Positions 5,054 to 40,133 of a stretch of 64,000 nt of DNA are shown one piece after another (the stretch's first letter is position 1; every line of letters begins with the position of its first letter). A program made the translations under genes and the position numbers. The DNA comes from Candidatus Omnitrophota bacterium (lineage in GTDB: Bacteria > Omnitrophota > Gorgyraeia > Gorgyraeales > Gorgyraeaceae). Where the stretch lies: the NCBI GenBank assembly GCA_043821705.1, contig JBDRCN010000051.1, forward strand, positions 28,007 through 92,006, given 5' to 3'. Under the pieces are notes generated by a model that searched no databases, had not been told where the DNA came from, and worked only from the letters and a program-made list of their open reading frames with translations.

Positions 5054-5263
5054 ATGAAACAAAAAAAATGGGATAAGCCTGAATTGATTGTATTGTTGAG
5101 AGGAGAACCTGGAGAAGATGTTTTAATAGGGCAGTGCAAAACAGACACCGATGGTACTGACAAAATAGGGCCTATGGATGTAATAACAGGTTGCAGAGTT
5201 AACGCAGGTTGGATGGGCTGTCCGCCGGAGACAGCGTGCAGAGATTTTAGTTATACAACTTAG
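5054..5263 (+). CDS. RiPP precursor peptide A, with a PqqA-like leader (WDKPELIVLLRGEPGE) and a Cys-rich core ending in ...CRDFSYTT
   Basis: 69 aa. A strong RBS AGGAGG lies 8 nt upstream. A TGn-TATAAT promoter is at ~4976-5004. The core has five Cys. It lies between radical-SAM maturase genes. Confidence 0.6.
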   Translation: MKQKKWDKPELIVLLRGEPGEDVLIGQCKTDTDGTDKIGPMDVITGCRVNAGWMGCPPETACRDFSYTT

Positions 5264-5361
5264 CTAGCTCAGGAGGCTGAGAAAGTCTCGTTTTGTGTAT
5301 AATTTTGCTTTAGTAATAGTAGGATTTATAAATTTGTTATGTTAAAAAAGGGGTATTTATT

Positions 5362-5577
5362 ATGAAACAAAAAAAATAGAATAAGCCTGAATTGATTGTA
5401 TTGTTGAGAGGGGAGCCAGGAGAGTCAGTATTAGTCGGTGAATGTCTTACTGTATCAGCCGAGCCAGAGTTAGGTTCTAGTATAGGTGCAGCAGCAGAGG
5501 TAAACAATTGTGCATTGGTAAGATCTGCTGGTTGTGCAGCTATACAATGCAGTGCTATAGGCTATGAAGTCATATAG
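5362..5577 (+). CDS. RiPP precursor peptide B, a paralog of A, with an in-frame TAG at codon 6 (5377-5379) where A has TGG (Trp). It is either a pseudogene or uses the TTG start at 5392.
   Basis: The nucleotide sequence atgaaacaaaaaaaaTAGaataagcctgaattgattgtattgttgagagg parallels precursor A codon for codon. The downstream leader ELIVLLRGEPGESVLVGEC is conserved. The core is Gly/Ala/Cys-rich and sactipeptide-like. Confidence 0.45.
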
Positions 5578-5646
5578 GGGATTTCTGCTTTTATTTGTCT
5601 CGGCCCAAGATGAGATTGCAATCTAAATATTTAAAAGAAGCTAGCT

Positions 5647-6828: not shown

Positions 6829-7120
6829 TCTTGATAAAATTTATAATATCTCTGACGAAGATGTTGTAGCTAGGGAAGTTGCTGGGGAATTTTTAATTAT
6901 TCCTATAACATCAGGCGTAGGAGATATAGAAGATGAGATCTATACTCTAAATGCTACAGGCAAGGCTATATGGGATAAGATAGATGGTAAAAAAACATTA
7001 AAAGAGCTAGCTTCAGAGCTTGCTGCTGAGTTTGAGGGCACTTCTGAAGACATTGAAAGAGATGTCACAGGCATAACAGAGGAGCTTTTAAAAAGAAATA
7101 TAATCTCTGAAAAGAAATAA
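6812..7120 (+). CDS. PqqD-like RiPP recognition element (RRE) protein
   Basis: 102 aa. Its size and pattern (VAREVAGEFLIIP...TLNATGKAIWDKIDGKKTLKEL...) are typical of the PqqD family. It overlaps the upstream radical-SAM gene by 17 nt. Confidence 0.65.
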   Translation: MSTKVNLDKIYNISDEDVVAREVAGEFLIIPITSGVGDIEDEIYTLNATGKAIWDKIDGKKTLKELASELAAEFEGTSEDIERDVTGITEELLKRNIISEKK

Positions 7121-7121
7121 T

Positions 7122-7613
7122 ATGTATCTTAGATATAAGGATGAAGTTGCTTATTTTTATAACGAGGAAATGATTGATTTAATGAAAGAAGCTTTCAAAA
7201 AAGGTAATTCCTTTCGTTTTAAGGCCAAAGGGTTTAGTATGTCGCCTTTCATTAAAGGCGGAGATGTTATTACTATTAAGCCGTTAAAAGAAGTTTCTTT
7301 GATAATAGGCGATATAGTATCTTTTATAAGCCCTAAAACAAATAGCCTTGCAGTGCACAGGATAGTCTCCATAAAAAAAAACGGTTGTGTGTTTAAAGGG
7401 GACAATAGCTTTAATTCTGATGGATTGGTTTTAAATAAGGATATTCTAGGTGTAATAAATAAGATAGAGAGAAATAATAAAGATATTACTTTCGGGCTTG
7501 GTAAGGAAAAAGGTATTATAGTATTTTTAAGTAGGACTAGAATCCTATTTTTATTTTTAAAGGTGTTTAGAGGTGTAAGGCGCTACACCAGGAGATTTTT
7601 TAATGGGAGATGA
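7122..7613 (+). CDS. S24/S26-family (signal-peptidase/LexA-like) serine peptidase, a candidate leader peptidase
   Basis: 163 aa. It has a GFSMSPFIKGGD nucleophile box, GDIVSF, HRIV and a KGDNSFNSDG box E-like motif. It is wedged between RRE and maturase genes. Confidence 0.55.
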   Translation: MYLRYKDEVAYFYNEEMIDLMKEAFKKGNSFRFKAKGFSMSPFIKGGDVITIKPLKEVSLIIGDIVSFISPKTNSLAVHRIVSIKKNGCVFKGDNSFNSDGLVLNKDILGVINKIERNNKDITFGLGKEKGIIVFLSRTRILFLFLKVFRGVRRYTRRFFNGR

Positions 7614-8751
7614 TTTTGTAAAGGTTCAGAAAATAACAGAGTTTAAGTTTAGAGGAAGCTCAAGCTCCACAAATACTCCCAAAGCTTTTAGTTTAGAACT
7701 TACTGCCAGGTGTAATAATAGGTGCGGGCATTGTTACATAGGCTTACCTGCCAATGATAAGGCTGCCAAAGAAAAAGAGTTGTCTTTTGAACAGATTAAA
7801 AGCATAGTTGATCAGGCTGTTTCAATGGGTGTTACAGGATGCCTTTTAACAGGAGGAGAGCCTCTCTTAAGAGATGATTTTTTTGACATCTATTTATACC
7901 TTAAGAAAAAAGGCCTATTTGTGTCTATTTTTACTAATGCCTGCCTTATTACAGAAGAACATGTAAAGCTTTTTAAAAGATATCCGCCGCGTGATGTTGA
8001 AGTAACAGTATATGGCGTTACAAAAGAGACGTATGAAAAAGTCACAAATGTCCCAGGTTCTTTTGATTCTTTTATGAGGGGGCTGAACCTTTTACTAGAT
8101 AATAGTATCAAGGTCAGGTTTAAGGCAATGGCTGTAAGGTCTAATTTAAAAGAACTTGAAGAGATCAAAAAATTCTGTAATGAAAGGACAAAAGATTATT
8201 TTAGATTTGACCCATTGCTTCATTTTAGGTATGACAGAAATGAATTCAGAAACCAGATGATTGCTTCCGAGCGCCTTACGCCTCTAGAAATAGCCCAGAT
8301 AGAAAAAGAGGATTTGAAGAGATTCGAGGTTTTGAAAAAAAACTGTGACAACTATATTATGCCGGAGTTTTTAGATAGAGTTACTAATCGCCTTATCTTA
8401 TGCGGAGCTGGTAATGGGAAATTTGTAGTAACTTATGACGGCTATTTTAAGCTATGCTCATCGCTTCATCATCCAGACTGTATGTATGACCTAAAAAAAG
8501 GCACTTTAAAGGATGCATGGGGAAACTTTATACCTAAAGTGAGGACAATGACCTCAAATAGGAAAGAATTTCTGGAAAAGTGCAGTAAATGCCCTATAAT
8601 AAATCTCTGCCTATGGTGTCCTGCGCATGCGTATCTTGAATCTGGTGAACTGGATAAGCCGATAGATTATTTCTGTGAAGTGGCGCATGCACGTGCGAAA
8701 ATGCTGGAAAGTGCAGTAAAGAAAAAAGAAGATGAAAAATTGCTAAAGTGA
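7603..8751 (+). CDS. Radical SAM / SPASM-domain peptide maturase (paralog 3)
   Basis: 382 aa. It has CNNRCGHC, GGEPLL, and a C-terminal CSKCPIINLCLWCPAHAY. Over its N-terminal ~150 aa it is ~50% identical to the 5647 gene by eye. Confidence 0.8.
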   Translation: MGDDFVKVQKITEFKFRGSSSSTNTPKAFSLELTARCNNRCGHCYIGLPANDKAAKEKELSFEQIKSIVDQAVSMGVTGCLLTGGEPLLRDDFFDIYLYLKKKGLFVSIFTNACLITEEHVKLFKRYPPRDVEVTVYGVTKETYEKVTNVPGSFDSFMRGLNLLLDNSIKVRFKAMAVRSNLKELEEIKKFCNERTKDYFRFDPLLHFRYDRNEFRNQMIASERLTPLEIAQIEKEDLKRFEVLKKNCDNYIMPEFLDRVTNRLILCGAGNGKFVVTYDGYFKLCSSLHHPDCMYDLKKGTLKDAWGNFIPKVRTMTSNRKEFLEKCSKCPIINLCLWCPAHAYLESGELDKPIDYFCEVAHARAKMLESAVKKKEDEKLLK

Positions 8752-8887
8752 TAAATTGCTAAATGGCTAAACTGTTAAATGGCTAAATTGCTAAATTGTT
8801 CAAAATTCAAAAATGATATAAGAAAAAGGACATAAAAATAAGGTAATTTATTTTGTATAAATACTAAAGATAGTATCTTGGGGAAAT

Positions 8888-10678
8888 ATGAGGCTATTCC
8901 AGCCTGATTTTAAGCAAACCAAAAAACAGTTCGAACTTTTTTTAAAATTCGTGAGGCTTATACTGCCTCATAAAGCCAAATGGATATTTATAATCTTATT
9001 AGGGGGTTTCTGGACGCTCTTAAGTGTAGTCAATCCATATATAACAAAGCTGGTTGTGGATGAAGGGATAATGAAGAGTGACCTGAGAAGATTTATAGCG
9101 CTAGCAGCCTTAGGGATCGTGATATTTATTATTCTTGGGGCAATCAATGGATTAAAGGAATATCTGGAGAAAAAAGTAAGCCTAGAGGTAAAATTTAGCT
9201 TAAATAAAATAGTTTTTGATAAGATCAATAAACTTTCTCTCAGCTGGTTTAGGACTAAATCAACAGGAGAGAATATCTATAAGATCAGTAATGACATTGA
9301 TAGGGTAAATAGCCTTATTACGACTATCCCTCCTAAAGCAGTAATGCTTTTTCCAAGAGTGATCTTTATCTTTTTAATAATGTTAAAGCTGAATTACAAA
9401 ATTGCTTTATTTTCATTGCTTTTAGCGCCATTTTTGTATATAGGCCCGTATTACTTTATCAAGAAACGTAGATCGATCTGGGAAAAATTAATAGAGTGCT
9501 CTCAAGGTATATTTAAATTTTTACATGAAAGTTTTTCACATAGCTATCTTATAAAAGCATTTGGCAAGGAGAGAGAAGAAAAGGACAAGTACTTAAAAAT
9601 ACTAAAAGATAATATTGAGATAGAAAAGACCAGCACAAAGCTAAACATTTTTAATAGCTTTGTTGCAAGGATAGCAGATAAGATCATAGTAGGGCTGATC
9701 ACTTTTTATGGCGGATACCATGTTATTAAGGGAGAGATGACTCTAGGGAGCCTGACTGCGATCTTAGTCTATCTAGGGCAACTGGTAGGCATGCAGCACG
9801 GGTTTATAGGATTTTTCCAGAGCACTGTCCTAGGCCTCGTATCATGCGAAAGGATAGCAGGTATCCTGGATGAAAAAGAAGAAATCACTGAAACATGTGA
9901 CGCAAAAGATATTTTAATTAAAAAAGGCGAAATAGAATTTAAAAAAGTAAATTTTGGATATTCTAAAGGTAAAGCTATTTTAAAAGATCTTGATTTCAAA
10001 ATAGAGGGCGGAAGGCATATTAGCTTAGCTGGTTCTTCGGGGCAAGGCAAGACCACAATCTTAAACTTGATCGCAAGGCTTTATGATGCGGATAGCGGTG
10101 AAATAATGATCGATAGGCAGTATATAAAAGACATCACGCTTAACTCCTTAAAAAAACAGATCAGCATGGCATTGCAGGAGACATTTCTTTTTAATACAAG
10201 CGTAAAAGACAATATCCTCTATGGGGACGGGAATGCTAGCTTAGAAGATGTTATAAGAGTGAGCAAGATTTCTTTAGTAGATAGTTTTACTGAAAATCTG
10301 CCAGAGAAGTATGACACAGTTATAGGTGAAAATGCATGTAAGATCTCAGAGGGACAGAAGCAGAAGATCGCTATTGCGAGAGCTTTAATTAAAAATCCTA
10401 AAGTTTTGATCCTAGATGAAGCATTTTCATCTATGGATTCAGCTAGCGAAGATAAGATAATATCGAACATAAAAGAAAATTTTAAGGATATTACAGTAGT
10501 CAGCGTCTCCCACCGCTTATCAACAGTAAAGCAATCAGACCTGGTGTATTTTTTAAATAATTCTGGGGGGATAGAGGTAGGTAAGCCAGAAGAACTTTTA
10601 GAAAAGAACATGGAATTTGAGGAATTGTTCAAGGGACAGAGGGAATTGACCATATCAGACCCGGGGTCTAATACATAA
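8888..10678 (+). CDS. ABC exporter, fused permease and ATPase (no C39 peptidase domain)
   Basis: 596 aa. An N-terminal 6-TM domain is followed by Walker A GSSGQGKTT, an ISEGQKQKIAIARAL signature, and Walker B LILDEA. Confidence 0.85.
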   Translation: MRLFQPDFKQTKKQFELFLKFVRLILPHKAKWIFIILLGGFWTLLSVVNPYITKLVVDEGIMKSDLRRFIALAALGIVIFIILGAINGLKEYLEKKVSLEVKFSLNKIVFDKINKLSLSWFRTKSTGENIYKISNDIDRVNSLITTIPPKAVMLFPRVIFIFLIMLKLNYKIALFSLLLAPFLYIGPYYFIKKRRSIWEKLIECSQGIFKFLHESFSHSYLIKAFGKEREEKDKYLKILKDNIEIEKTSTKLNIFNSFVARIADKIIVGLITFYGGYHVIKGEMTLGSLTAILVYLGQLVGMQHGFIGFFQSTVLGLVSCERIAGILDEKEEITETCDAKDILIKKGEIEFKKVNFGYSKGKAILKDLDFKIEGGRHISLAGSSGQGKTTILNLIARLYDADSGEIMIDRQYIKDITLNSLKKQISMALQETFLFNTSVKDNILYGDGNASLEDVIRVSKISLVDSFTENLPEKYDTVIGENACKISEGQKQKIAIARALIKNPKVLILDEAFSSMDSASEDKIISNIKENFKDITVVSVSHRLSTVKQSDLVYFLNNSGGIEVGKPEELLEKNMEFEELFKGQRELTISDPGSNT

Positions 10679-10712
10679 AAGATACTAGGGCAAGACCCCG
10701 GGTCTTGAATAT

Positions 10713-11606
10713 ATGATATCCGTAATAGTTGTAAATCATAATAGAAGCGCGCTATTGAAGAGGTGTCTTGAGTCTCTTAGGGGCCAGAGCCTTATGGACT
10801 TTGAGGTCATTGTGGTTGATAATGCATCTAGTGATGATAGTGTAGAGATGGTAAAGACCTATTTTCAGGATGCAAAGGTCATACAAAACACAACTAACCT
10901 ATATTTCTCAAAAGCATATAACCAAGGCATGGAAGCATCATACGGAAGTTTCATCCTGTGCTTAAATAATGATGCGTACCTGGAGAAAGATTTTTTAAAA
11001 GAAGCGCTCTTTGCTATAGGAAAAGATGAGAAGATAGGCATGGTAAGCGGAAAGATCCTTCGCGAAGATAAATTGACCATAGATTCAACAGGGCTGTTTT
11101 TAGGGAGAAATCGCAAGCCTATAGAAAGGGGTTACGGGTTACCCTCCTACGCCAAGGCTACGGAGGGCAGGCGGGATACGGGGCTGTATGATAAAGAAGA
11201 ATATATCTTCGGAGTAAGTGGCTCATGCGCATTTTACAGGAAAAAGATGCTCGAAGACATAAAAGATAAACATGGGTATTTCGACGAGAGGTTCGAGATG
11301 TATTATGAAGACTTGGACCTTTCCTGGAGAGCGCAGAAGAAGGGATGGAAAGCGTATTATACGCCTAAGGCGATAGCATATCATAAAAGGAGTTCAGGTT
11401 TTTTCACGATCCCAGATGACTTAAAGAAAAAATATATAAGGAATCGCTATTTATGCATGAAGAAAAACGATTCATTAAAAGATGTCATATGGAATATACC
11501 CTTTATATTAATATATGAAATTAAACTTTGGGGCTATATGATGTATAACTATTTTAGATCCCGGATCTTAAACATAGAAAAAACTCCGGCAAGATCCGGG
11601 ATCTGA
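10713..11606 (+). CDS. Glycosyltransferase family 2
   Basis: It has an N-terminal MISVIVVNHNRSALLKRCLESL...VVDNASSDDS DxD-type GT-A fold signature. Confidence 0.8.
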   Translation: MISVIVVNHNRSALLKRCLESLRGQSLMDFEVIVVDNASSDDSVEMVKTYFQDAKVIQNTTNLYFSKAYNQGMEASYGSFILCLNNDAYLEKDFLKEALFAIGKDEKIGMVSGKILREDKLTIDSTGLFLGRNRKPIERGYGLPSYAKATEGRRDTGLYDKEEYIFGVSGSCAFYRKKMLEDIKDKHGYFDERFEMYYEDLDLSWRAQKKGWKAYYTPKAIAYHKRSSGFFTIPDDLKKKYIRNRYLCMKKNDSLKDVIWNIPFILIYEIKLWGYMMYNYFRSRILNIEKTPARSGI

Positions 11607-11655
11607 AATATAGGATCTGAAACATAGAAAAACTCCGGCAAGATCCGGGATCTGA
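11546..11655. repeat. Tandem direct repeat (~40-bp unit, 2 copies) containing GATCCCGGATC/GATCCGGGATC hairpins. It overlaps the 3' end of the GT2 gene.
   Basis: aacatagaaaaa(a)ctccggcaagatccgggatctga occurs twice. The inverted motif gatcccggatc pairs with gatccgggatc. Confidence 0.7.
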
Positions 11656-11674
11656 TGATAAGTAAAAGAAGTGC

Positions 11675-11703
11675 TTGACGAAATAAATAATACATAGTAT
11701 AAT
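11675..11703 (+). promoter_or_regulatory. Sigma-70-like promoter of rpsO (TTGACG-17-TATAAT)
   Basis: -35 at 11675-11680 and -10 at 11698-11703, 24 nt upstream of the rpsO ATG. Confidence 0.6.
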
Positions 11704-11726
11704 TACTGCTCGGAGGTAAGAAAGAG

Positions 11727-11996
11727 ATGGCATTAGAAGCAAAGAGAAAATTAGAACTAGTAAAGGATTTTTCAGAGCACGAAAAAGATACAGGTTCTTG
11801 CAGTGTTCAGGTAGCGCTTTTGACTGAAAGAATTAATACTCTTACAGTGCACTTTAAAGAGCACAGGAAAGATTTTAATTCCAGGGTGGGGCTTTTACGC
11901 CTAGTAAGTCAGAGGAAGAGATTGCTAGAATATCTAAAAAGAGAAAACACTGAAAAATATCGCGAGCTCACAGAAAAACTCAATCTAAAAAAGTAA
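11727..11996 (+). CDS. rpsO: 30S ribosomal protein S15
   Basis: 89 aa with conserved S15 sequence ([39 protein letters not shown]). Confidence 0.95.
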
Positions 11997-12001
11997 TTTA
12001 G

Positions 12002-12066
12002 GGGCGGATTGCTTAGAGGTCTATTTAGTGTCTAACTAAAAAAGACCCTTGAAATCCGCCTTTTTA
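12002..12066 (+). terminator. Stem-loop with T-run between rpsO and pnp (attenuator or RNase III-type processing hairpin)
   Basis: ggcggatt...aatccgcc followed by ttttt. Confidence 0.5.
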
Positions 12067-12085
12067 ATAAAAAAAAGAGGGCAAT

Positions 12086-14158
12086 ATGAAAGTAGAGAAA
12101 ATAATAGGCAGAGAGAATCTCGTAATAGAAACAGGTAAGATGGCTAAGCAGGCGAATGGCGCTGTGTGCGTTCAATATGGGGGCACAGTAGTGCTAGTGA
12201 CAGCTGTCTCTAGCAAAGAGGTAAAGAAGGGGATAGATTTCTTCCCTTTAATGGTGGAATATAAAGAAAAGACATATGCTGCTGGTAAGATCCCAGGAGG
12301 GTATTTTAAAAGAGAAGGACGTCCTACAGAAAAAGAGATATTAACAGCTCGTCTTATAGATAGGCCTATCAGGCCGCTTTTTCCAGAAGGATATATAAAT
12401 GATGTGCAAGTATTTGCAACAGTGCTTTCAAGCGACGGGGAGAATGATTCTGACATCCCTTCCTTAATAGGGGCATCGTGCGCGCTGCATATATCAAATA
12501 TTCCTTTTTTAGGGCCAATAGGGGCTGTAAAGATAGGCATGATAAATGATGAGTTTATAGTCAATCCTACTTTTAAGGAGACAGAAGAGAGTAAGCTCAC
12601 TTTATTGGCAGTAGGACTTAAAGATAAAATAGTCATGATAGAATCCGAAGCTAATGAGGCATCAGAAGAAAAGATGCTTGAAGCTCTGGAATTTGCGCAA
12701 AAATATATAAAAGAGAGCATAGCTATCCAGGAAGACCTAAGAAAACAGTGCGGGATAGAAAAAGTAACACCAGTATTAGCAACTATCGATCAAGGGCTTT
12801 ATGAAAAAGTAAAGTCGCTCGCTCTAAAAGAGCTTCAAAAAGCAGTCAGTCTTTCCAAGAAAGAAGAAAGAAATGAAAAGAAAGACCAGCTAGTCAAGGA
12901 AGTGGTCGAGAAGCTAAAGGCAGAGGATGAGGAATTATCAGAAGTAGAGATAAAAAATGCCCTGCACAAGCTGGAAAAAGAAGAGATAAGAGCTTTTATC
13001 TTAAAAAATAATAAGAGGATCGATGGAAGAGGTTTTGAAGAGGTAAGGGCAATAACATGTGAAGTAGGGGTTCTTCCCAGGACACATGGTTCAGGGCTTT
13101 TTACCAGAGGAGAGACCCAGAGTCTTTCCGTTACTACCTTAGGCACTGGCCAGGATGAACAGAGGATCGATTCGCTAGAGGGCGAACAGTTCAAGACCTT
13201 TATGCTTCATTATAATTTCCCGTCTTTTAGCGTGGGAGAAGTAAGGCCAGCTAGAGGGCCAGGAAGACGCGAGATAGGCCATGGCGCATTAGCTGAAAAA
13301 GCTTTTAAAGCAGTTATACCCCCAGCTGAAGAATTCCCATATACAATAAGGGTAGTCTCAGAGATATTGGAATCAAATGGCTCTAGCTCTATGGCAACAG
13401 TCTGCGCTAGCACGCTTTCTCTGATGGATGCAGGGGTGCCTATTAAAAAACCTGTAGTGGGGATCGCGATGGGATTAGTAAAAGAAGGAGATAAAGCAGC
13501 TATTCTTACTGATATAGCAGGAGAAGAAGACCATTTTGGGGATATGGATTTTAAGGTCACTGGGACTGAGAGCGGTATAACAGCAGTTCAGATGGACTTA
13601 AAGATAGATGGTATAGGCCTGGCTTTAATAAAGAAGATCATGGCTCAGACCAAACCTGCGAGAGAATCTATAATGGCAAAGGTATTGGAAGTCATACAGA
13701 ACCCTAGAAAAGAACTTTCTACATATGCTCCTAAGATAGAGACCCTTACAATTGACAAAGACAAGATAAGGGATCTTATCGGCCCTGGTGGAAAAATAAT
13801 AAAAAAGATCATTGCTGATACTGGAGCGACCATTGAAGTGGATGATGACGGTAAAGTAGCAATATCATCTGACAATCAAGAGGCTATAAATAAGGCGATG
13901 GAGATCGTAAGAGGTATCGCAGGAGAGCTCGAGATAGGTGCAGTGTTTAACGGCACCGTGACGAAGATAATGAATTTCGGGGCATTTGTCGCGTTATTCC
14001 CAGGCAGAGAAGGCCTAGTGCATGTATCTGAATTAGCAGGCGGATTCGTGAAGAATGTCGAGGATGTAGTAAAAGTCGGAGATAAAGTAAAGGTTAAGCT
14101 CGTTAAAATAGACGAGATGGGCAGGCTGAATCTCAGCATGAAACAGGCAAAAGAATAG
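12086..14158 (+). CDS. pnp: Polynucleotide phosphorylase
   Basis: 690 aa with RNase PH, KH and S1 domains. The order is the canonical rpsO-pnp. Confidence 0.95.
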   Translation: MKVEKIIGRENLVIETGKMAKQANGAVCVQYGGTVVLVTAVSSKEVKKGIDFFPLMVEYKEKTYAAGKIPGGYFKREGRPTEKEILTARLIDRPIRPLFPEGYINDVQVFATVLSSDGENDSDIPSLIGASCALHISNIPFLGPIGAVKIGMINDEFIVNPTFKETEESKLTLLAVGLKDKIVMIESEANEASEEKMLEALEFAQKYIKESIAIQEDLRKQCGIEKVTPVLATIDQGLYEKVKSLALKELQKAVSLSKKEERNEKKDQLVKEVVEKLKAEDEELSEVEIKNALHKLEKEEIRAFILKNNKRIDGRGFEEVRAITCEVGVLPRTHGSGLFTRGETQSLSVTTLGTGQDEQRIDSLEGEQFKTFMLHYNFPSFSVGEVRPARGPGRREIGHGALAEKAFKAVIPPAEEFPYTIRVVSEILESNGSSSMATVCASTLSLMDAGVPIKKPVVGIAMGLVKEGDKAAILTDIAGEEDHFGDMDFKVTGTESGITAVQMDLKIDGIGLALIKKIMAQTKPARESIMAKVLEVIQNPRKELSTYAPKIETLTIDKDKIRDLIGPGGKIIKKIIADTGATIEVDDDGKVAISSDNQEAINKAMEIVRGIAGELEIGAVFNGTVTKIMNFGAFVALFPGREGLVHVSELAGGFVKNVEDVVKVGDKVKVKLVKIDEMGRLNLSMKQAKE

Positions 14159-14170
14159 GGGTAACCTCCT

Positions 14171-14911
14171 ATGACCTTTTTTGAAGCCGTCATATCAGGT
14201 ATTGTCCAAGGCATAACAGAATTCCTTCCAGTGTCCAGCTCAGGACATCTCGTAATCTTACATCATATGTTCGGGGTCAATGAGCCGCAGGTATTTTTTG
14301 ACATATTTCTGCATCTAGGCACTCTTATTGCGATATTTATCGTCTTTTGGAGAGATATCGTAGACCTCTTTTATTCCAAAAAGAAAAACCTCATCCCTCT
14401 ACTTATAGGGACTATAGTCACAGTAGGATTTGTCCTTATATTTAAAGACAGTATAGAGAATATTTTTGCAAGTACTAAGATAGTAGGCTTTATGCTTATT
14501 GTAACAGGAGCTTGGCTTATAGTAGGAAGCTTTATAAGGTTCGGAGGCGAGACGTTATCAGGCTTTAAAGCAGCTATTGTGGGGCTTGCCCAAGGCATAG
14601 CTAGTATCCCCGGGATCTCAAGGAGTGGGGCTACTATTTCTACTGGCATGTTTTTAGGCCTTTCCAGTAAAGCTGCTGCTAGATTTTCATTTTTACTCTG
14701 TATCCCTGCTATAATAGGCGCTTTTATACTCAAGGCAAAAAGCGGGTCAATGGAAGGTTTTAATATTAATTATATAGTAGGGCTCATTACTTCTTGCATT
14801 ATAGGTGTTTTATCATTAAAATTATTATTAAGGATGCTTTTTAAAGACAGGCTCTGGATATTTAGTTTTTACTGTATTATATTAGGAGTAGTTGTAATAT
14901 TTTTCTTATGA
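14171..14911 (+). CDS. uppP: Undecaprenyl-diphosphatase
   Basis: The GITEFLPVSSSGHL motif is present and the protein is polytopic. Confidence 0.9.
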   Translation: MTFFEAVISGIVQGITEFLPVSSSGHLVILHHMFGVNEPQVFFDIFLHLGTLIAIFIVFWRDIVDLFYSKKKNLIPLLIGTIVTVGFVLIFKDSIENIFASTKIVGFMLIVTGAWLIVGSFIRFGGETLSGFKAAIVGLAQGIASIPGISRSGATISTGMFLGLSSKAAARFSFLLCIPAIIGAFILKAKSGSMEGFNINYIVGLITSCIIGVLSLKLLLRMLFKDRLWIFSFYCIILGVVVIFFL

Positions 14912-17127
14912 GCAGAGACAAGATAGATCTGATAAAGGGTATAGGACTTTTTGCATTGATGCTATTTTTATTAGCAGCGATGTTCTCTTATTCGCCTTAT
15001 GATATAAAGTTCGAGACATCCACGCCGAATCTCCACATCAGGAATTACGCAGGTATCACAGGCGCTTATATCTCATGGTCGCTTTTCAGGATGGTCGGGT
15101 ATAGCGGGTTCTTCATACCGTTTCTTTTCCTTATCTGGGGCATTGGGATATTAGCAGAGAGGTTAAAACAAGGATATGTTATAAGGTTTTTAGGACTAGT
15201 GCTTTTCTTTTCGTCCATATCTACGTTTTTCTGCTTGAGCGCTATGGGGGACAGTGTAGCGATGGTAGAAAGAGGAGGCCTTGTAGGTTATTTCTTTTCA
15301 AATCTTCTGCTCGGGTATTTTGGCAGGATAGGAAGCTTCATAATCACTGGAGCCTTAAGTGTCCTTGCGCTCTTGGTAATAACAGAGTTTTTAGTAATAC
15401 CCCTGATCTCATTTTTATTTTTAAGGATATGGAACCTGATAAGAGAGCTAAAGCTTAGAAGAGCAGAAAGAGCTATGCTAAAGAAGGTAAGTCCTAGACG
15501 AGAAAGGCCTAGGTTAAAGCCAGCGATAAGGGTGCAGAGGAAACTCCCAAAAGTAAAAGACGAGAAAGAGGATGAAGAAGAAGAGGAGGAGGAAGAAGAG
15601 GATGAGATAGCCCCAAGATCATTACCAAAGATAAGCCTACCAAAACCCAAGCCTCCTAAAAAATCAATAAAGATAGAGCCTAGGATAGTAGGAGATTATA
15701 AAATGCCTCCTTTAGACCTTTTATCCGTAGGAGATATAAAAACAGTAAATATCTTAGAAGAAGACCTAGAAACTTCTTCCAGGATATTGGAAGATACATT
15801 ACGCGATTTTAATATAGAAGTAAAGGTGGTCAATGTAAGTAAAGGCCCAGTCATCACTAGATATGAGCTTCAGCCAGCTCCAGGCGTAAAGGTACACAGG
15901 ATCACATCTTTAAGCGATGACATTGCTCTTACCATGAAAGCAACCACTGTGAGGATCGTAGCGCCTATACCTGGCAAATCTGCAGTGGGCATAGAAGTGC
16001 CTAATCAGAGCTCCTCTTTAGTATATCTAAGAGAGGTCTTGGAGTCATCAGAGTTTCAGAAAAAAGCAAAGACCTCGAAGCTTACTATGGCTCTCGGAAA
16101 AGATATTTCAGGCAGGAGTGTAGTAGCGGAGCTGGGAGATATGCCGCATCTTTTGATAGCAGGCACTACTGGGAGCGGAAAGACAGTTTGCGTGAACTCT
16201 ATTATAATGAGCATGATATATAATGCGACCCCTGACGAGCTTAAATTTATAATGGTAGACCCGAAGATGGTGGAGTTAGCCATATATAATGGCCTGCCGC
16301 ATCTATTGTGCCCAGTGGTCACAGATTCTAAGAAAGCATCTGGAGCGCTTCTTTGGGTGGTAAATGAGATGGAAGATAGATATAAAAAACTTGCTAAGGT
16401 AGCTGCCAGGAACATAGATGCATTTAATAAAAAAGTAGAAACGCAAGACGAGAAACTGCCTTTTATAGTAGTTATTATAGATGAGTTGGCAGACCTGATG
16501 ATGATAGCTCAGCATGAGGTAGAGAATACTATCACTAGACTGGCTCAACTTTCAAGAGCTGTAGGCATACACATTATACTTGCTACACAGAGGCCTTCTG
16601 TAGATGTAGTGACTGGCGTTATAAAAGCGAATTTCCCTGCAAGGATATCTTTTAAAGTAGCTTCAAAGGTAGATTCAAGGACAGTGCTGGACATGAATGG
16701 AGCTGATAAGTTATTAGGAAAAGGCGATATGCTATTTCTGCAGCCCGGGAATGCAAAGCCGATCCGCGCCCAGGGAACGCTTCTATCAGATAATGAGATA
16801 GAAAAAGTAGTCGGATTTATAAAAGAGCAGAGAGAGCCTTTCTATGATGATGAGATATTGGAGCAGCAGAAAAAAAGTTTATCTAGCAGGGGTGGGTTTG
16901 ACAAAGATGAGTTTTTTGATGAAGCAGTACAGATGGTGCTGGAGACAGGCCAGGCATCAGTATCAATGATCCAGCGCAGGCTCAGGCTGGGGTATACCAG
17001 GGCTGCCAGGCTCATAGATTCCATGGAAGAAGAGGGCATTGTAGGTTCTTATAGAGGTAGCAAACCAAGAGAGATACTTATTAAAGAATATAAACCTAAA
17101 GAAGAGATCGAAGCAGGGGAAGCTTAA
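14908..17127 (+). CDS. ftsK: DNA translocase FtsK
   Basis: It has N-terminal TM segments, an acidic low-complexity linker, a Walker A GTTGSGKT motor domain and a C-terminal gamma winged-helix domain. Confidence 0.9.
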   Translation: MSRDKIDLIKGIGLFALMLFLLAAMFSYSPYDIKFETSTPNLHIRNYAGITGAYISWSLFRMVGYSGFFIPFLFLIWGIGILAERLKQGYVIRFLGLVLFFSSISTFFCLSAMGDSVAMVERGGLVGYFFSNLLLGYFGRIGSFIITGALSVLALLVITEFLVIPLISFLFLRIWNLIRELKLRRAERAMLKKVSPRRERPRLKPAIRVQRKLPKVKDEKEDEEEEEEEEEDEIAPRSLPKISLPKPKPPKKSIKIEPRIVGDYKMPPLDLLSVGDIKTVNILEEDLETSSRILEDTLRDFNIEVKVVNVSKGPVITRYELQPAPGVKVHRITSLSDDIALTMKATTVRIVAPIPGKSAVGIEVPNQSSSLVYLREVLESSEFQKKAKTSKLTMALGKDISGRSVVAELGDMPHLLIAGTTGSGKTVCVNSIIMSMIYNATPDELKFIMVDPKMVELAIYNGLPHLLCPVVTDSKKASGALLWVVNEMEDRYKKLAKVAARNIDAFNKKVETQDEKLPFIVVIIDELADLMMIAQHEVENTITRLAQLSRAVGIHIILATQRPSVDVVTGVIKANFPARISFKVASKVDSRTVLDMNGADKLLGKGDMLFLQPGNAKPIRAQGTLLSDNEIEKVVGFIKEQREPFYDDEILEQQKKSLSSRGGFDKDEFFDEAVQMVLETGQASVSMIQRRLRLGYTRAARLIDSMEEEGIVGSYRGSKPREILIKEYKPKEEIEAGEA

Positions 17128-21976: not shown

Positions 21977-22027
21977 AACTCCTATTATAAGTAAGTTTCA
22001 TAATTTTGGCAAGCTTTTCTAGCGCCA

Positions 22028-22055
22028 CCTCCGCAGACCCCGGGTCTGCGGAAGG
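22028..22055. repeat. REP-like GC-rich palindrome CCTCCGCAGACCCCGGGTCTGCGGAAGG (copy 1)
   Basis: Near-perfect palindrome. The same sequence recurs at 22141, 22862 and 40956. Confidence 0.85.
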
Positions 22056-22140
22056 GCAGCCTATTTGTATTTTTTTAAAGATTTTTTGAAAGAAATTGAC
22101 CCCCTCCTGTGTCTAATATAGTGTAAAAGCTTTCTAAAGA

Positions 22141-22169
22141 CCTCCGCAGACCCCGGGTCTGCGGAAGGG
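22141..22169. repeat. REP-like palindrome (copy 2)
   Basis: cctccgcagaccccgggtctgcggaaggg. Confidence 0.85.
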
Positions 22170-22204
22170 TTAAGTGTTTTTAATTCATAAAAAAGGAGGA
22201 TAAA

Positions 22205-22855
22205 ATGTTGCGTAATCCCATTATTCAAACAGGTGCTACTTATCATATTTATAGCAAGAGCATAGCGGGTTATAAAATATTTAATAGTGAGTCTGAATAT
22301 TTGCGAATGAAGGAGCTTATGGTATATTACCTGGCAGATAAAAGACAGATTAGTTTTTCTAAGTTTAAAGAAAAAAATGCAGAGATTTTATTAGGAAATG
22401 TGTCGAGCAAAGGAAATCTTGTGCAAATAATATGTTATTGCCTTATGCCTACGCATATCCACTTAACACTTACCCAGTTAGCGGATAAAGGTATATCCAA
22501 ATTTATTGGCAATATTCTTAGCAGCTACTCCCACTATTTTAATTTAAAACACAACAGGAAAGGGCCATTGTGGGAAGGGAGGTTTAAAGGTGGCTTAGTA
22601 AAAACTGATGAACAGCTTCTTCATCTAACGCGTTATATTCACTTAAATCCTGTTTCCGCATATCTAGTTGACAAGCCAGGAGATTGGAAATACTCTTCCT
22701 ACAAGGAATATATTTCGAAAGAACATTGCAAAAGCAGTTTATGTAACTATGATAATGTGTTAGACATCCAGCCTATTTTATATAAAAAATTTGTAGAAGA
22801 TAGGATTTCCTATCAAAGAGAGTTAGTCAAGATAAAGGCTTTAATATTTGACTAG
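22205..22855 (+). mobile_element. REP-associated tyrosine transposase (RAYT; IS200/IS605-like HUH Y1 transposase)
   Basis: 216 aa with an HIHL HUH motif (CYCLMPTHIHLTL) and a YHIY region. It is flanked upstream and downstream by the REP palindromes. Confidence 0.8.
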
Positions 22856-22861
22856 GCATTG

Positions 22862-22888
22862 CCTCCGCAGACCCCGGGTCTGCGGAGG
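22862..22888. repeat. REP-like palindrome (copy 3)
   Basis: cctccgcagaccccgggtctgcggagg, immediately 3' of the RAYT gene. Confidence 0.85.
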
Positions 22889-23031
22889 TGGTGTGGAGCT
22901 AGGTGGGTTAAGAAAGGGGGTATTATGGATATATATAGCATTTATATATAAATTACTTTACATTATATAGGGCGGGATGTATAATCTAAAAATAATCTAC
23001 TTGCCTAGCAGCAAGCAAAAAGGAGGAAGCC

Positions 23032-37736: not shown

Positions 37737-37834
37737 TCGGGAAAGTGGGTTCGGAAAAAGTTGCAGGTTAATAAAAGCTTGACAGGTTTTTAGAACTGTA
37801 GTATAAAGAAGTTAATTGAATATTTATTTTTATA

Positions 37835-37985
37835 TTGTCTAAGGGAAGCTGGTGAGATGCCAGCGCAGCCCCGCTGCTGTAATAGGGTACGAAAGCTAAC
37901 ACTAAGCCATTATCTGCTCACGAAGCGGACGAGAAGGCGTTAGCAAGTAGAGAGATCCTTAAGTCAGAAAACCTTACAGTATATT
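37835..37985 (+). ncRNA. Cobalamin (B12) riboswitch
   Basis: GGGAAGCTGGTGAGATGCCAGCGCAGCCCCGCTGCTGTAA matches the conserved core (GGGAA-GGTG-CC...CCCGC-CTGTAA). It is followed by GTCAGAAAACC, and then by expression-platform hairpins and a terminator. Confidence 0.7.
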
Positions 37986-38078
37986 TTTCTTAAAAACCTC
38001 CGCGAAGGACGGAGATTTAAGAGTTCTATGATTATAAAGGTAATCATAGAGCGATAGAGGCTGATAAAACGTGGGATC

Positions 38079-38129: not shown

Positions 38130-40133
38130 ATGAAAAAAATAATATTGATCGGTATTGCGGCTGTAACATTATCTTCTTTTGCTTACGCAGAAGACAGCGC
38201 AATAGATTTGGAAAAGATAGTTATAACCCCGGCGCGTATGTGTCAATATATGAACGAGGTTGTCTCAAATGTGGATGTAATCACTAGCGATGATATTGCT
38301 GGCTCTAATGCGCTGTATGTAAAGGATATTTTAGAGCAGAAACTAGGCCTGAACATATACAGCAATAGCACCCCCAAGACAGTCAAGGTAGACATCAGAG
38401 GCTTTGCAGATACATCTGTAAGCAATGTATTAGTATTGATCGATGGCAGAAAAGTAAATTCCATAGACATGTCAGGCGCAGACTGGGTACAGGTACCTGT
38501 GGAGACAATAGAAAGGATAGAGGTCATAAAAGGCGCTGGGTCAGTCCTATATGGGGATAATGCAGTAGGAGGTGTAATTAATATAGTTACAAAAAAAGGC
38601 AGAGGCGATAAGGCCTCTGGGAGCGCAGGCGTTAAATATGGAAGCTATAACTTGATCAAGGAAGATGTTGAGTTGAAAGGGGAGTTTAAAAAAGTGTCTT
38701 ACTATTTCCATTCTGATTACAGTGAATCAGATGGTTACAGGGATAATAGCGATCTATTGGTAAAGGATTATAATACTAGGATATGTTTTGATGCCACAGA
38801 TGTTCTTAGTTTGGATTTTGCAGCTGGCTGGCATGAGGATGACTACGGCATGCCAGGAGGGCTTAATGACTCTGAATTGGCACAATATGGAAGACGAGGA
38901 TCAGTGGATAATAGAGATTTTGCCACTACTAAGGACAGATACATAAGACTATCTCCTGATTACAAGGCTGAATTGTTTGGCGTGGATTTTGGGGATATTA
39001 TAATAGACTTATTTTACAGGAACAGGGATTCTTACTCATGGTTCTATTATGGGGGCTTTCCAACAGCTACTAAGTATATGATAGACACGAAAGGTGTGAC
39101 ATTGAAGCACGTTTATAAGGGGGACCTTAAGGGCACCAGGCTTAACGTTGTGACAGGCGTAGATTATTATGATGTCGAGCATATTATCAAGCAGAGCGAA
39201 TGGGGAACAGATGATCTGACCATTTACAAGGATGAGCTAGGTGTTTATTCATATCTTGACTACGAACTATTTGACAAGTTTTTTATAAATACTGGAGGAA
39301 GGTACCAGACTGCAGAATATACTTTTGACCAAAGGGCTTCAAGCGTTAATTATGTAAAGAGAGAACCGAGAGAAAGTGTTTTTATGGGCGGCGCCAAATA
39401 CGAATACAGAAAAAACTCTTTTATACATTGTAGCGTTCATGAGACTTTCAGGTTTTTGGCGACTGATGAGTGGTATTCAACATGGACAGGATTAAATACT
39501 AATATCGATCATCAAACAGGAATTCAATATGAAGCAGGCATAAAACATGATTTTGACAATAAAGCCAAAATTAAATTGACCCCTTATTTAATAGATATAA
39601 AGAATGAGATATATCTCAATCCGAGCGTATGGCCCGGGAACAATGATAATTATGATAAGACAAGAAGAAAAGGGCTTGAAGTAGGCGTGGAAGCCAACAT
39701 AAAAGACATATTGGAGATAGATTTTCTGGATAAATTGTCTTTATCAGCAAACTACAATTACCAGGAACCAAAATTCAAGGATGGCTCTTTTAGCGGCAAA
39801 TATATACCTTTTGTCCCAAAGCATTCTTTTAACACAGTGCTGGAAGTGGGTGTTTTTGACGGTTTAAATATTTCAGCATCAGGCAGGTTCATTGGGGATA
39901 GGTACGCTATAAATGATACGAGCAATGTGGCATCCAAAGTGAAGAATAGCTTCGTATGCGATACAAGATTATACTTCATTAAGAAATACTATGAGATCTA
40001 CGCAGGAATTAATAATATATTTAATGAGAAATACTTTGATTACGCTGTTAAACCTACTGGAGCAGGTACTGCAAAAGATTACTATCCTGCACCAGAACGC
40101 AATTTCGAAGTCGGAGTAAAGTGTAAATTTTAG
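38130..40133 (+). CDS. TonB-dependent outer-membrane receptor (BtuB-like cobalamin receptor)
   Basis: It has a signal peptide, a TonB-box/plug region (EKIVITPAR), a 22-strand barrel-sized C-terminal part and a terminal aromatic residue (…KCKF). Confidence 0.85.
   Translation: MKKIILIGIAAVTLSSFAYAEDSAIDLEKIVITPARMCQYMNEVVSNVDVITSDDIAGSNALYVKDILEQKLGLNIYSNSTPKTVKVDIRGFADTSVSNVLVLIDGRKVNSIDMSGADWVQVPVETIERIEVIKGAGSVLYGDNAVGGVINIVTKKGRGDKASGSAGVKYGSYNLIKEDVELKGEFKKVSYYFHSDYSESDGYRDNSDLLVKDYNTRICFDATDVLSLDFAAGWHEDDYGMPGGLNDSELAQYGRRGSVDNRDFATTKDRYIRLSPDYKAELFGVDFGDIIIDLFYRNRDSYSWFYYGGFPTATKYMIDTKGVTLKHVYKGDLKGTRLNVVTGVDYYDVEHIIKQSEWGTDDLTIYKDELGVYSYLDYELFDKFFINTGGRYQTAEYTFDQRASSVNYVKREPRESVFMGGAKYEYRKNSFIHCSVHETFRFLATDEWYSTWTGLNTNIDHQTGIQYEAGIKHDFDNKAKIKLTPYLIDIKNEIYLNPSVWPGNNDNYDKTRRKGLEVGVEANIKDILEIDFLDKLSLSANYNYQEPKFKDGSFSGKYIPFVPKHSFNTVLEVGVFDGLNISASGRFIGDRYAINDTSNVASKVKNSFVCDTRLYFIKKYYEIYAGINNIFNEKYFDYAVKPTGAGTAKDYYPAPERNFEVGVKCKF

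Follow-up and report, generated by a model that had tools for sequence, protein, structure and literature searches.

The 64-kb window analysed here, from an Omnitrophota bacterium, probably contains a REPtron-like unit, in which a gene for a class-2 Y1 HUH protein is bracketed by its own cognate palindromes. The predicted fold and motifs of the protein, the pairing of gene and palindrome throughout its family, a dispersed copy of the palindrome and the long residence of the gene at this locus carry this reading. The unit is ordered REP1, a conserved 37-nt element, REP2, a ribosome-binding site (RBS), the gene and REP3. The features of the window are the following.

10657..10705, no strand assigned: inverted doublet of short hairpins with the exact 13-nt REP tip (AGACCCGGGGTCT at 10657, AGACCCCGGGTCT at 10693)
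11556..11653, no strand assigned: three compensatory-variant hairpins, AGATCC-N-GGATCT (AGATCCNGGATCT), at 11556, 11592 and 11641
22025..22057, plus strand: REP1, distal upstream palindrome (core 22028-22054, CCTCCGCAGACCCCGGGTCTGCGGAAG), with a 5' ACC head at 22027-22029
22086..22122, plus strand: conserved 37-nt upstream element, TTGAAAGAAA-N14-TGTCTAATATAGT, present once in the window
22140..22169, plus strand: REP2, proximal upstream palindrome (core 22141-22167), oriented as REP1, between the conserved element and the RBS
22193..22199, plus strand: RBS AAGGAGG, 5 nt ahead of the ATG, read from the sequence; family loci have an AGGAGG equivalent
22205..22855, plus strand: gene for the 216-aa class-2 Y1 HUH protein (RAYT-like), with H84-I-H86, Y144 in RYIHLNP and the tail W161..S164-S165-Y166
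22859..22891, minus strand: REP3, downstream palindrome (core 22862-22888), perfect 13+1+13, beginning 7 nt past the stop codon
40956..40982, minus strand: REP4, solitary dispersed copy with centre T, in REP3 orientation as judged by flanks

On its sequence and predicted structure, the 216-aa protein is a class-2 Y1 HUH enzyme, a RAYT or TnpA-REP in the broad sense, and as such a putative endonuclease/ligase of single-stranded DNA. The first-pass annotation had described a 216-aa HUH protein in a canonical REP-RAYT arrangement. The open reading frame at 22205-22855 (+) indeed contains MPTHIHL, and alignment places both the HUH motif (H84-I-H86) and the catalytic tyrosine (Y144). Pfam Y1_Tnp is matched at 33.8 bits against a cut-off of 23. 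The best sequence match in the PDB is 4ER8, TnpA-REP on a REP hairpin (E 2.2e-4), while ISDra2 TnpA is found at E 0.4. The AF2 model (pLDDT 78) also has 4ER8 as its top Foldseek match (E 6.8e-7, TM 0.52/0.67), ahead of IS608 and ISDra2 (E about 2e-4). An alignment of 31 family members shows no variation at H84, H86, Y144 and N148 and at least 90% conservation of P149. The full-length frame keeps all 39 residues that are invariant in the family, HUH and catalytic Tyr included. The tyrosine motif, Y144-I-H-L-N148-P149, corresponds to Y-x3-NP, which marks TnpA-Y1 class 2, whereas IS200 (class 1) has Y-x3-Q (PMC6006769).

The word canonical did not survive. The NCBIfam RAYT model NF047646 scores 64.9 bits (E 6.9e-18, residues 54-164), below its equivalog cut-off of 80. 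The motif NP(L/V)(R/K)xG after the tyrosine, a criterion of canonical RAYTs (Nunvar 2010, PMC2817692), is absent; the sequence here is NPVSAY and the family consensus NPVTAY. The lack of a GT[AG]G head, the near-perfect palindromes, their ambiguous orientation and their low dispersal also depart from the canonical type. What stands of the earlier reading is that the frame encodes a Y1 HUH enzyme, of RAYT and not IS200 type, and that the flanking repeats are cognate to it. No HTH or DnaA_C-like domain is detected by Pfam at the C-terminus, where the model has a single long helix. No tnpB partner was found in the window, and the neighbours of the gene are cinA and recA.

Palindrome copies lie at 22028, 22141, 22862 and 40956, as the earlier annotation had placed them; the 27-mer that it quoted for both upstream copies matches them at 26/27 positions. 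Those at 22028 and 22141 read CCTCCGCAGACCCCGGGTCTGCGGAAG, with the perfect palindrome limited to the inner 23 nt, and the copy at 22862 is a perfect 27-mer (13+1+13). The core sequence is TCCGCAGACCCNGGGTCTGCGGA, and the positions relative to the open reading frame are -177, -64 and +7. The copies were correctly described as richer in GC than their surroundings (74-78% against 33-42% for the window). No palindrome match appeared in 100 dinucleotide-preserving shuffles. As single-stranded DNA the copies have folding energies between -12.9 and -16.4 kcal/mol (z-scores -4.2 to -7.4), and a search of Rfam with the palindromes gave no matching family. REP1 lies 16 nt beyond the -35 box of the divergent cinA promoter.

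The lone fourth copy with an altered centre is present as reported, and the palindrome thus occurs apart from the gene. REP4 closes an operon of B12-riboswitch, TonB-dependent receptor and tonB, in an intergenic spacer 18 kb from the gene. It begins 4 nt past the tonB-like stop codon, and the -35 box of the groES promoter follows at 15 nt. The earlier suggestion that it doubles as a terminator was not borne out. No T tract follows the hairpin on the coding strand, so REP4 is not a coding-strand terminator; the scan calls it terminator-like on the minus strand only. In the plus-strand scan no REP copy was called, no coding-strand T tract stands behind any of them, and intrinsic termination by the REPs on that strand was rejected.

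The orientation of the flanking copies is ambiguous. Judged by its flanks, REP3 is inverted relative to REP1 and REP2, with the ACC head on the minus strand (GGT at 22887-22889); the flanks of REP1 and REP3 agree at 13/26 positions inverted and 8/26 direct, and the 39-nt inverted repeat I1 makes REP3 85% complementary to REP1. The asymmetric centre base, however, is C on the plus strand in REP1, REP2 and REP3, which indicates direct orientation. No GT(A/G)G head was found at any REP copy in the window, and an ACC/GGT foot is present instead. The 7-nt pair ACCCCCT (22103) and AGGGGGT (22919) was considered as a TIRYT-like terminal repeat and dropped, since the match was not reproduced in relatives.

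The gene belongs to a large family, with 2664 database matches at 50-66% identity, the closest being 65-66% identical. All members with a name are from Omnitrophota. In 65/77 homologous loci one identical stretch of 13 nt or more (median 20 nt) recurs in both flanks, compared with 3/89 at shifted control positions (median 9, maximum 14). This paired arrangement recurs in a lineage-specific manner, and the palindromes are therefore regarded as the cognate repeats of the gene. Their sequence is specific to each lineage, frequently with REPIN-like inverted doublets, and their build across the family is ACC-stem-ACC-loop-GGT-stem-GGT, to which the REP of the window conforms. ACC/GGT ranks first of 64 trimers at the hairpin foot (77/116 hairpins) and at the tip is second (60/116) to the overlapping CAC (62). 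Some relatives have GTAG in the loop (CCTCGTAGG) and not at the foot. Direct and inverted orientations of the flanking copies both occur, and the distances from hairpins to start and stop codons are short and fixed across the family. In the syntenic orthologues L129, L140 and L207 the palindromes differ, and L140 retains a remnant of the L207 type: the REPs have turned over alongside the gene. The window has a single copy of the gene, and none of 87 loci has a further full copy within 10 kb; L177 and L178 have a duplicated 3' fragment of the gene. P0017 and P0019, considered as two paralogues on one contig, proved in look-ups to be on different contigs.

Nine further loci also have the 37-nt element ahead of their Y1 gene (L118, L120, L125, L126, L129, L133, L140, L207 and L208), and a remnant of it persists in the cinA-recA spacers of L204 and L205, which lack the gene. 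It resembles a promoter or operator, and its position suggests a promoter role. As a sigma-70 promoter it was rejected: TTGAAA-TATAGT is at 25 nt, the window-specific TTGACC-TATAGT at 15 nt, and the promoter scan was silent.

Important information on the history of the locus is found in relatives whose RecA is 87% and 77% identical. These have the same gene order and no Y1 gene, and their cinA-recA spacer keeps the family-specific upstream element together with a remnant of the RBS and ATG. Such remnants indicate that the gene was an old resident here and was later deleted in the relatives; it has been lost at this same locus in L204, L205 and L206. Comparison with L204 had at first been read as an insertion of REP2, gene and REP3 (breakpoints near 22124 and 22883) in a cinA-recA spacer that was otherwise empty; this reading was withdrawn. 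L204 and L205 are deletion remnants and not empty sites, because the TTGAAAGAAA...TGTCTAATATAGT block is specific to the Y1 family and recurs in the nine other loci. In other genomes the cassette has unrelated contexts, which counts against the REPtron-like reading. It follows the 23S-5S rRNA genes in L118, L130 and L133, and in L207 it lies between an Alginate_exp gene and a PIN/PhoH gene, a region common to L129 and L140. In L184 and L203, nucleotide identity of 87% stops at the hairpins and the flanks are unrelated; this pattern fits movement of the whole unit and also counts against the REPtron-like reading.

Measured against classical REP genomes, dispersed copies are few, at about one per 50-60 kb examined. 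The window has one full copy in 63 kb (REP4), in addition to five related short hairpins at 10.6-11.7 kb, and the relatives have 9 distant palindrome copies in ~427 kb of flanking sequence (~1 per 47 kb). Mobilisation of REPs must thus be weak at best, a further point against the REPtron-like reading. A loose pattern, CCGCAGACCNNNGGTCTGCGG, retrieved at least 117 generic GC-rich hairpins from genome contigs, mostly terminators of unrelated bacteria, and stricter REP patterns gave no match in metagenome and viral contigs. Both short hairpins with the 13-nt tip AGACCCCGGGTCT had been overlooked in the first-pass annotation. The copy at 10657 is its reverse complement, and the doublet spans the stop codon of an ABC-transporter gene and the spacer ahead of a GT2 gene; it may be a REPIN-like pair or represent a short subfamily of the REP. 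Two of the three hairpins at 11556..11653 are inside a tandemly duplicated 49-nt segment from the 3' end of the GT2 gene, and their kinship to the REP is uncertain. The pattern AGAYCCNGGRTCT, which was defined post hoc, has 9 exact matches in the window against 0.35 expected at no more than 1 mismatch.

By analogy with E. coli TnpA-REP and IS608 TnpA, the palindromes may extrude as hairpins in single-stranded DNA, for example in the lagging-strand template. The 216-aa protein would then recognise a hairpin together with its ACC/GGT foot; H84 and H86 would bind a divalent metal, and cleavage by Y144 would leave a 5'-phosphotyrosyl link. Rejoining could excise, move or multiply REP units, here at a low rate. 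DNA binding, cleavage and REP mobilisation are thus activities that known relatives lead us to expect of this protein. At the RNA level, a secondary role is conceivable: REP2 would give the 5' UTR a stem-loop, and REP3 or REP4 would place one at the 3' end, where the likely outcome would be stabilised rather than terminated transcripts.

The same arrangement could be an autonomous or semi-autonomous IS200-like cassette, in which the hairpins are left and right ends, the whole unit moves by peel-and-paste and REP4 is a solo end or footprint. Like the IS200/IS605 TnpA proteins (IS608, ISDra2, IS200), the protein has the HUH/Tyr fold, with subterminal hairpins on each side of its gene, and IS200 also has a 5' hairpin pair. 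The compact layout, whose hairpins keep constant short distances to the start and stop codons, the different genomic contexts, the agreement of L184 and L203 from hairpin to hairpin, the small number of solitary palindromes and the duplicated 3' fragments in L177 and L178 all suit such a cassette. The enzyme, however, has Y-x3-NP and not the Y-x3-Q of IS200, and 216 aa instead of the core-only ~150 aa. The same palindrome stands at both ends where distinct left and right ends would be expected, the conserved upstream element is external to the proximal hairpin, and no tnpB accompanies the gene. A multi-copy signature is missing from the window and the locus flanks: near-identical second copies are absent in the window and the 87 loci, and the closest relative is only 65-66% identical. 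The remnants in syntenic relatives speak against recent insertion and for long vertical residence followed by deletion. An active insertion sequence is disfavoured by the single gene copy in the window, by these remnants and by a search of viral contigs that did not find the family, and we consider the IS200-like cassette unlikely.

Less probable still is that the palindromes are mainly RNA or transcription signals of the gene, for 5'-UTR stability or autoregulation and as a 3' terminator or stabiliser, with the substrate of the enzyme elsewhere. REP2 is suitably placed between the upstream element and the RBS, REP3 and REP4 begin 7 nt and 4 nt past stop codons, hairpin spacing is conserved across the family, and REPs of E. 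coli stabilise mRNA 3' ends. RNA signals alone would not need the palindromes on both sides to change together in every lineage, nor does such a role agree with an identical sequence shared by the two flanks of the gene and a distant locus, with the terminator scan and missing T tracts, or with a closest solved relative crystallised on just such a DNA hairpin. The gene and its palindromes might also be inactive fossils of a past invasion, as the losses in L204, L205 and L206, the mismatch in the outer stems of REP1 and REP2 and the low REP copy number would allow. A full-length frame with every family-invariant residue, HUH and catalytic Tyr among them, an intact RBS, a perfect REP3 and a large family conserved phylum-wide, with its 2664 matches at 50-66% identity, make decay very improbable, the least likely of these explanations.

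The REPtron-like reading is best compared with E. coli TnpA-REP (YafM, RAYT subclass 2.2; 4ER8), the best match in both sequence and structure. Both have the Y1 HUH fold, HuH, Y-x3-NP, W-x-x-RF and the W..SS tail motif, and in both a single gene is bracketed by its own palindromes (REPtron) with further copies elsewhere. Identity is only 17%, and the protein here has 216 aa instead of 165 aa. It contains an additional insert towards the N-terminus, at residues 45-70 where pLDDT is low, and a long helix at the C-terminus (190-215); it has T-H-I-H where E. coli has D-H-L-H. The GTAG-reading E100 and H101 of E. coli (PMC6006769) align with G129 and G130 and are not conserved. The palindrome is near-perfect, with an ACC/GGT foot and without the GTAG head or bulge of E. 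coli REPs. Dispersed copies are far fewer than in E. coli, where REPs have a high copy number; usually more than 100 are found per genome (PMC2817692).

By diagnostic motifs (Y[IV]HLNP, WE, SS tail; Table 1, PMC6006769), the closest group is TIRYT/TIRtron, TnpA-Y1 subclass 2.1 (Di Nocera 2013, PMC3733652; Quentin 2018, PMC6006769). The two also have in common a length above 200 aa, an apparently low copy number and flanking repeats that are at most moderately abundant. Subclass 2.1 is defined by NH[VYF]H, W[EQ], Y[IV]HLNP, SS and a C-terminal HTH-like domain (PMC6006769). In contrast, the HuH prefix here is T (THIH) and not N, Pfam finds no HTH domain, and the flanks are self-complementary hairpins, often doublets, instead of GGGGWSAS terminal inverted repeats. 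With the REPIN-RAYT systems of Pseudomonas (Bertels and Rainey; groups 2 and 3), the family shares one cognate palindrome family per gene, inverted-doublet flanks forming long hairpins (L120, L126, L133, L207 and L208) and an apparently single-copy, vertically inherited and occasionally lost gene. The REPIN-RAYT flanking 16-mer occurs 57 times in group 2 and 140 times in group 3 (PMC5581495). Pseudomonas REPINs number tens to hundreds per genome, whereas the repeats here are sparse and nearer to Bertels' groups 1, 4 and 5 (12-31 occurrences).

Among domesticated bacterial transposases that coexist with a population of miniature repeats, REP/RAYT systems are the principal example. To our knowledge, their study has been almost confined to Proteobacteria and a few other phyla. 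Omnitrophota is an uncultured phylum of very small cells with small genomes. REP/RAYT systems as such are already known; the phylum-wide variant of Omnitrophota is not known to have been described. It follows the same logic with another recognition architecture, an ACC/GGT foot and tip without GTAG, and is further distinguished by its upstream element, by a very low dispersal of the repeats, by palindromes seen to turn over and by repeated loss of the gene. The 80-plus loci offer matched pairs of enzyme and hairpin, a natural series from which the Y1 recognition code could be worked out, and may also be used to ask why REP populations expand or not. Tentatively, and as a doubtful extension, the Omnitrophota enzymes may be a new phylum-wide subclass of class-2 Y1 with a self-contained cassette (element-palindrome-gene-palindrome) of ACC/GGT build that barely spreads, a 'proto-REPtron' between an IS200-like element and a domesticated RAYT. 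If this were true, the main substrates of the enzyme would still be its own flanks, and the origin and decay of REP/RAYT systems could be seen here. The public annotation of the gene also needs attention: its start is misplaced (178 aa against 216 aa) and its label is just 'transposase', the NCBI protein records from the 102,618-bp contig of the source MAG being MFH1783040.1 and MFH1783041.1.

The cassette formed by an upstream element, GC-rich palindromes and a RAYT-like gene (the Y1 gene) probably works like a REPtron and is a member of TnpA-Y1 class 2. To this extent the first-pass annotation, which had called it a canonical REP-RAYT arrangement, holds; it is not, however, a canonical GTAG-REP RAYT. 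All four palindrome copies claimed there were found (22028, 22141, 22862, 40956), and their reported GC richness is evident, with 74-78% GC in the copies and 33-42% GC in the window. REP3 matches the 27-mer quoted for them perfectly, but REP1 and REP2 differ from it by one mismatch in the outer stem, which limits their perfect palindrome to the inner 23 nt.

Features of the cassette and related hairpins in the window
10657 and 10693: short-hairpin inverted doublet, carries the exact 13-nt tip
11556, 11592 and 11641: compensatory-variant hairpins (AGATCC-N-GGATCT)
22028 and 22141: REP1 and REP2, CCTCCGCAGACCCCGGGTCTGCGGAAG, one mismatch to the quoted 27-mer
22086-22122: conserved upstream element, TTGAAAGAAA-N14/15-TGTCTAATATAGT, single occurrence in the window, common to the syntenic loci L204 and L205
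22205-22855, plus strand: Y1 gene, 216 aa
22862: REP3, perfect palindrome, 13+1+13
40956: REP4, solitary, centre base T

Palindrome matches occurred in 0 of 100 dinucleotide-preserving shuffles, and the copies fold as ssDNA at -12.9 to -16.4 kcal/mol (z-scores -4.2 to -7.4). The flanks beyond the invariant core, as well as an inverted-repeat match joining REP1 and REP3, split the copies into two orientation classes, REP1 and REP2 versus REP3 and REP4, and every copy oriented by flank class starts with an ACC head. By this flank criterion, the Y1 gene would lie between inverted copies with their heads outward. The asymmetric centre base is at odds with this orientation, being C on the plus strand in REP1, REP2 and REP3 alike.

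The window derives from a Candidatus Omnitrophota MAG. A search with the Y1 protein returned 2664 relatives, for which every source-supplied name was Omnitrophota or Omnitrophica; the nearest one other than the protein itself shares just 65-66% identity, and no family member was found in viral contigs. The family sample comprised 80 metagenomic loci and several from exact look-ups. For each locus whose flanks were long enough, 300 nt on the 5' side of the gene were compared with 250 nt on its 3' side; 65 of 77 loci had an identical run of 13 nt or more in common (median 20 nt), against 3 of 89 control pseudo-genes placed 3 or 6 kb away within those loci (median 9, maximum 14). The shared stretch is always a hairpin, usually located 30-100 nt 5' of the start codon and 1-40 nt 3' of the stop, and each lineage has its own hairpin sequence. 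That each gene is strictly paired with palindromes of its own is demonstrated here.

These diverse hairpins have a common build: ACC, stem, (C)ACC, loop, GGT(G), stem, GGT. The window palindrome, ACC-TCCGCAG-ACC-CCG-GGT-CTGCGGA-GGT, matches it. At the hairpin foot, ACC/GGT is the commonest of the 64 trimers (77/116 hairpins); at the tip it comes second (60/116), after the overlapping CAC (62/116). We infer that this build is what the conserved protein reads instead of GTAG. Inverted doublets form long hairpins (REPIN architecture) in many loci, such as L120, L126, L133, L207 and L208, and asymmetric loops reveal direct as well as inverted arrangements within the family. In L177 (3820-3942) and L178 (4650-4772), the intact gene is followed, after about 140 nt, by a duplicated 41-aa C-terminal Y1 fragment, which suggests rearrangement at the downstream hairpin.

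The 216-aa product with an HUH motif was confirmed; the open reading frame contains MPTHIHL. It scores 33.8 bits against Pfam Y1_Tnp (threshold 23). Its sole meaningful NCBIfam match, the RAYT equivalog NF047646, reaches 64.9, below the cut-off of 80; two further features of canonical RAYTs, the GT(A/G)G head and the NP(L/V)(R/K)xG motif, were looked for and are absent from the window unit. Among solved structures, the top sequence match is 4ER8, E. coli TnpA-REP with a REP hairpin (E 2.2e-4), and ISDra2 TnpA scores E 0.4. Modelling with AlphaFold on 31 family sequences gave pLDDT 78 and pTM 0.78, and the best Foldseek match of the model was again 4ER8 (E 6.8e-7), with the IS608, ISDra2 and IS200 transposases at about 2e-4 or weaker. 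The family alignment shows no variation at H84, H86, Y144 and N148 or in the tail W161..S164-S165-Y166. Quentin et al. separate class 2, the RAYT side, from IS200 by the tyrosine motif, which is Y-x3-NP in the former and Y-x3-Q in the latter (PMC6006769). By its motifs the Y1 protein is assigned to TnpA-Y1 class 2 and is not an IS200 TnpA; the catalytic set is intact on a class-2 Y1 HUH fold. Judged by Table 1 of Quentin et al., subclass 2.1 (TIRYT) appears nearest (WE, YIHLNP, SS, more than 200 aa), although the HuH prefix is T, not N or D. Pfam detected no HTH tail. E100 and H101, reported as readers of the GTAG head in E. coli TnpA-REP (PMC6006769), align with G129 and G130, in keeping with palindromes that lack GTAG. 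The public annotation MFH1783040.1 (178 aa) begins at Met39 and drops 38 N-terminal residues (22205-22318); the family-invariant Y13, H14, S19, I20 and R34 all lie in this omitted part, and the true start is therefore 22205.

The gene order of the window (ftsK to pgpA; ligT and cinA, minus; recA, alaS and hisD, plus) also occurs in three relatives, whose RecA proteins are 87%, 86% and 77% identical. The Y1 gene is absent between cinA and recA in all three, and their spacers measure 380, 194 and 436 nt versus 1055 nt in the window. Insertion of the cassette in the window was considered and rejected, because the 22086-22122 block common to L204 and L205 is specific to the Y1 family. This element is confined to the closest Y1 subclade (L118, L120, L125, L126, L129, L133, L140, L207, L208), where it follows an upstream terminator or hairpin and precedes the proximal palindrome. 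L204 and L205 also retain RBS/ATG-like remnants directly before the recA promoter. The simplest reading of these alignments is that the cassette was ancestral at cinA-recA in the clade; deletion would then have removed it from L204 and L205, and from L206 entirely. The comparison supports long residence at this locus, with losses in relatives. Near-consensus sigma-70-like promoters precede cinA (TTGCCA-17-TATAAT, 21984-22012, minus) and recA (TTTACA-17-TATAAT, 22957-22985, plus). L204 and L206 conserve both the recA promoter and the -10 block of cinA, so the cassette is flanked by two divergent housekeeping promoters. L205 (ERZ27250635 k141_2428046) contains an inverted duplication at 8001-17053, recA-alaS-hisD then hisD-alaS-recA, which is probably an assembly chimera, and a family-type palindrome with an 18-bp stem (AACCGCGTAAGTCACCCTTAAGGGTGACTTACGCGGTT) at 6202-6239, adjoining a ligT truncated to 80 aa.

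Elsewhere, the cassette lies immediately 3' of 23S-5S rRNA genes in three related genomes (L118 1-370, L130 1-618, L133 1-1246); the 3' part of the L133 23S gene is interrupted by about 700 nt that the other two lack. In L207 its neighbours are an Alginate_exp gene on one side and a PIN/PhoH gene on the other, in a region common to L129 and L140. The palindromes differ among these three orthologues, L140 keeping an L207-type remnant; here palindromes turn over beside a vertically inherited gene. L184 and L203 share 87% identity that starts at one hairpin and stops at the other, and their flanks are unrelated; therefore, the whole unit occasionally relocates.

The window has one Y1 gene copy and one full solitary palindrome, REP4. 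Exact matches to AGAYCCNGGRTCT number 9, versus 0.35 expected at up to one mismatch, for a pattern defined post hoc. As to a location at gene 3' ends, REP4 and the short hairpins all lie in spacers or overlap gene 3' ends. Nine distant palindrome copies were found in about 427 kb of relatives' flanking sequence. Dispersal, at about 1 per 50 kb across the window and these flanks, is far below that of classical REP genomes; strict REP patterns had no match in the metagenome or viral contigs scanned. Bertels' groups 1, 4 and 5 have 'moderately abundant' repeats (PMC5581495), and their density, like that of TIRtrons, is similar (PMC5581495; PMC3733652). A 49-nt tandem duplication (11570-11655) repeats the last 28 nt and stop codon of a GT2 glycosyltransferase gene (10713-11606); each copy carries a AGATCCGGGATCT hairpin, and AAAAGAAGTGCTTGAC after the second copy resembles AAAAAAGTGCTTGAC after REP4.

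A self-mobile, IS200-like cassette would account for the compact layout, the varied genomic contexts and the L184/L203 pair. It is nevertheless unlikely given the Y-x3-NP motif, identical sequences at both ends, the lack of duplicates in the window and in 87 loci, the remnants in syntenic relatives and a conserved element outside the proximal hairpin. That the unit is a dead relic is the most improbable alternative, as the invariant residues and the RBS are intact. A purely RNA-level role of the hairpins, itself very improbable, would leave unexplained both the identical sequences on the two gene sides and at a distant locus, and the concerted palindrome change in every lineage.

Secondary RNA stem-loop roles alongside the REPtron-like function are suggested by the positions of three copies: REP2 is preceded by the conserved element and followed by the RBS, and REP3 and REP4 start 7 and 4 nt after stop codons. 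On the coding strand no T tract lies 3' of any of the three, and the scan for terminators makes no plus-strand call there. The proposal that REP4 terminates the tonB-like gene was not upheld, the scan qualifying it on the minus strand only. REP4 closes an operon of a cobalamin riboswitch (37799-37995; Rfam RF00174, 79 bits), a TonB-dependent receptor (38130-40133) and a tonB-like gene (40263-40952), 15 nt 5' of the groES -35 box.

By analogy with E. coli TnpA-REP and IS608 (PMC3479197, PMC6006769), the palindromes would extrude as ssDNA hairpins and the Y1 protein would bind hairpin and foot. H84 and H86 would place the metal, Y144 would form a 5'-phosphotyrosyl intermediate, and resealing would move or multiply REP units, though infrequently in this lineage. 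No paper linking Omnitrophota with RAYT, REP or IS200 was found in the literature searched. The unit is an ordinary element type; its value lies in a large natural enzyme-hairpin series, whose recognition architecture differs and whose repeats have proliferated unusually little.

Other features were observed in the window. A GC-rich repeat of about 85 nt (43433-43517, 47371-47454; 66-nt core 89% identical) folds as a long hairpin, and its copies differ by two compensatory base-pair changes. Both copies are followed closely by a TTGAC promoter-like box, the first ahead of a MoxR-like AAA ATPase gene (43593) and the second ahead of an IMPDH/GMP-reductase-like gene (47532). The repeat has no Rfam match; it may be a structured RNA of unknown kind or form a second family of repeats. 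A RiPP-like cluster (2990-8751) contains three radical-SAM paralogues (655, 393 and 382 aa) and two segments of about 100 nt, 83% identical, which begin small precursor-like ORFs. One (5054-5263) codes for 69 aa, of which the C-terminal half is rich in Cys (MKQKKWDKPELIVLLRGEPGEDVLIG...); a TAG at codon 6 interrupts the ATG frame of the other copy (5362). A tandem array (8729-8800) of about 9 copies of the 8-nt unit AAATTGCT/AAATGGCT lies in the spacer that separates the third radical-SAM gene from an ABC transporter gene.
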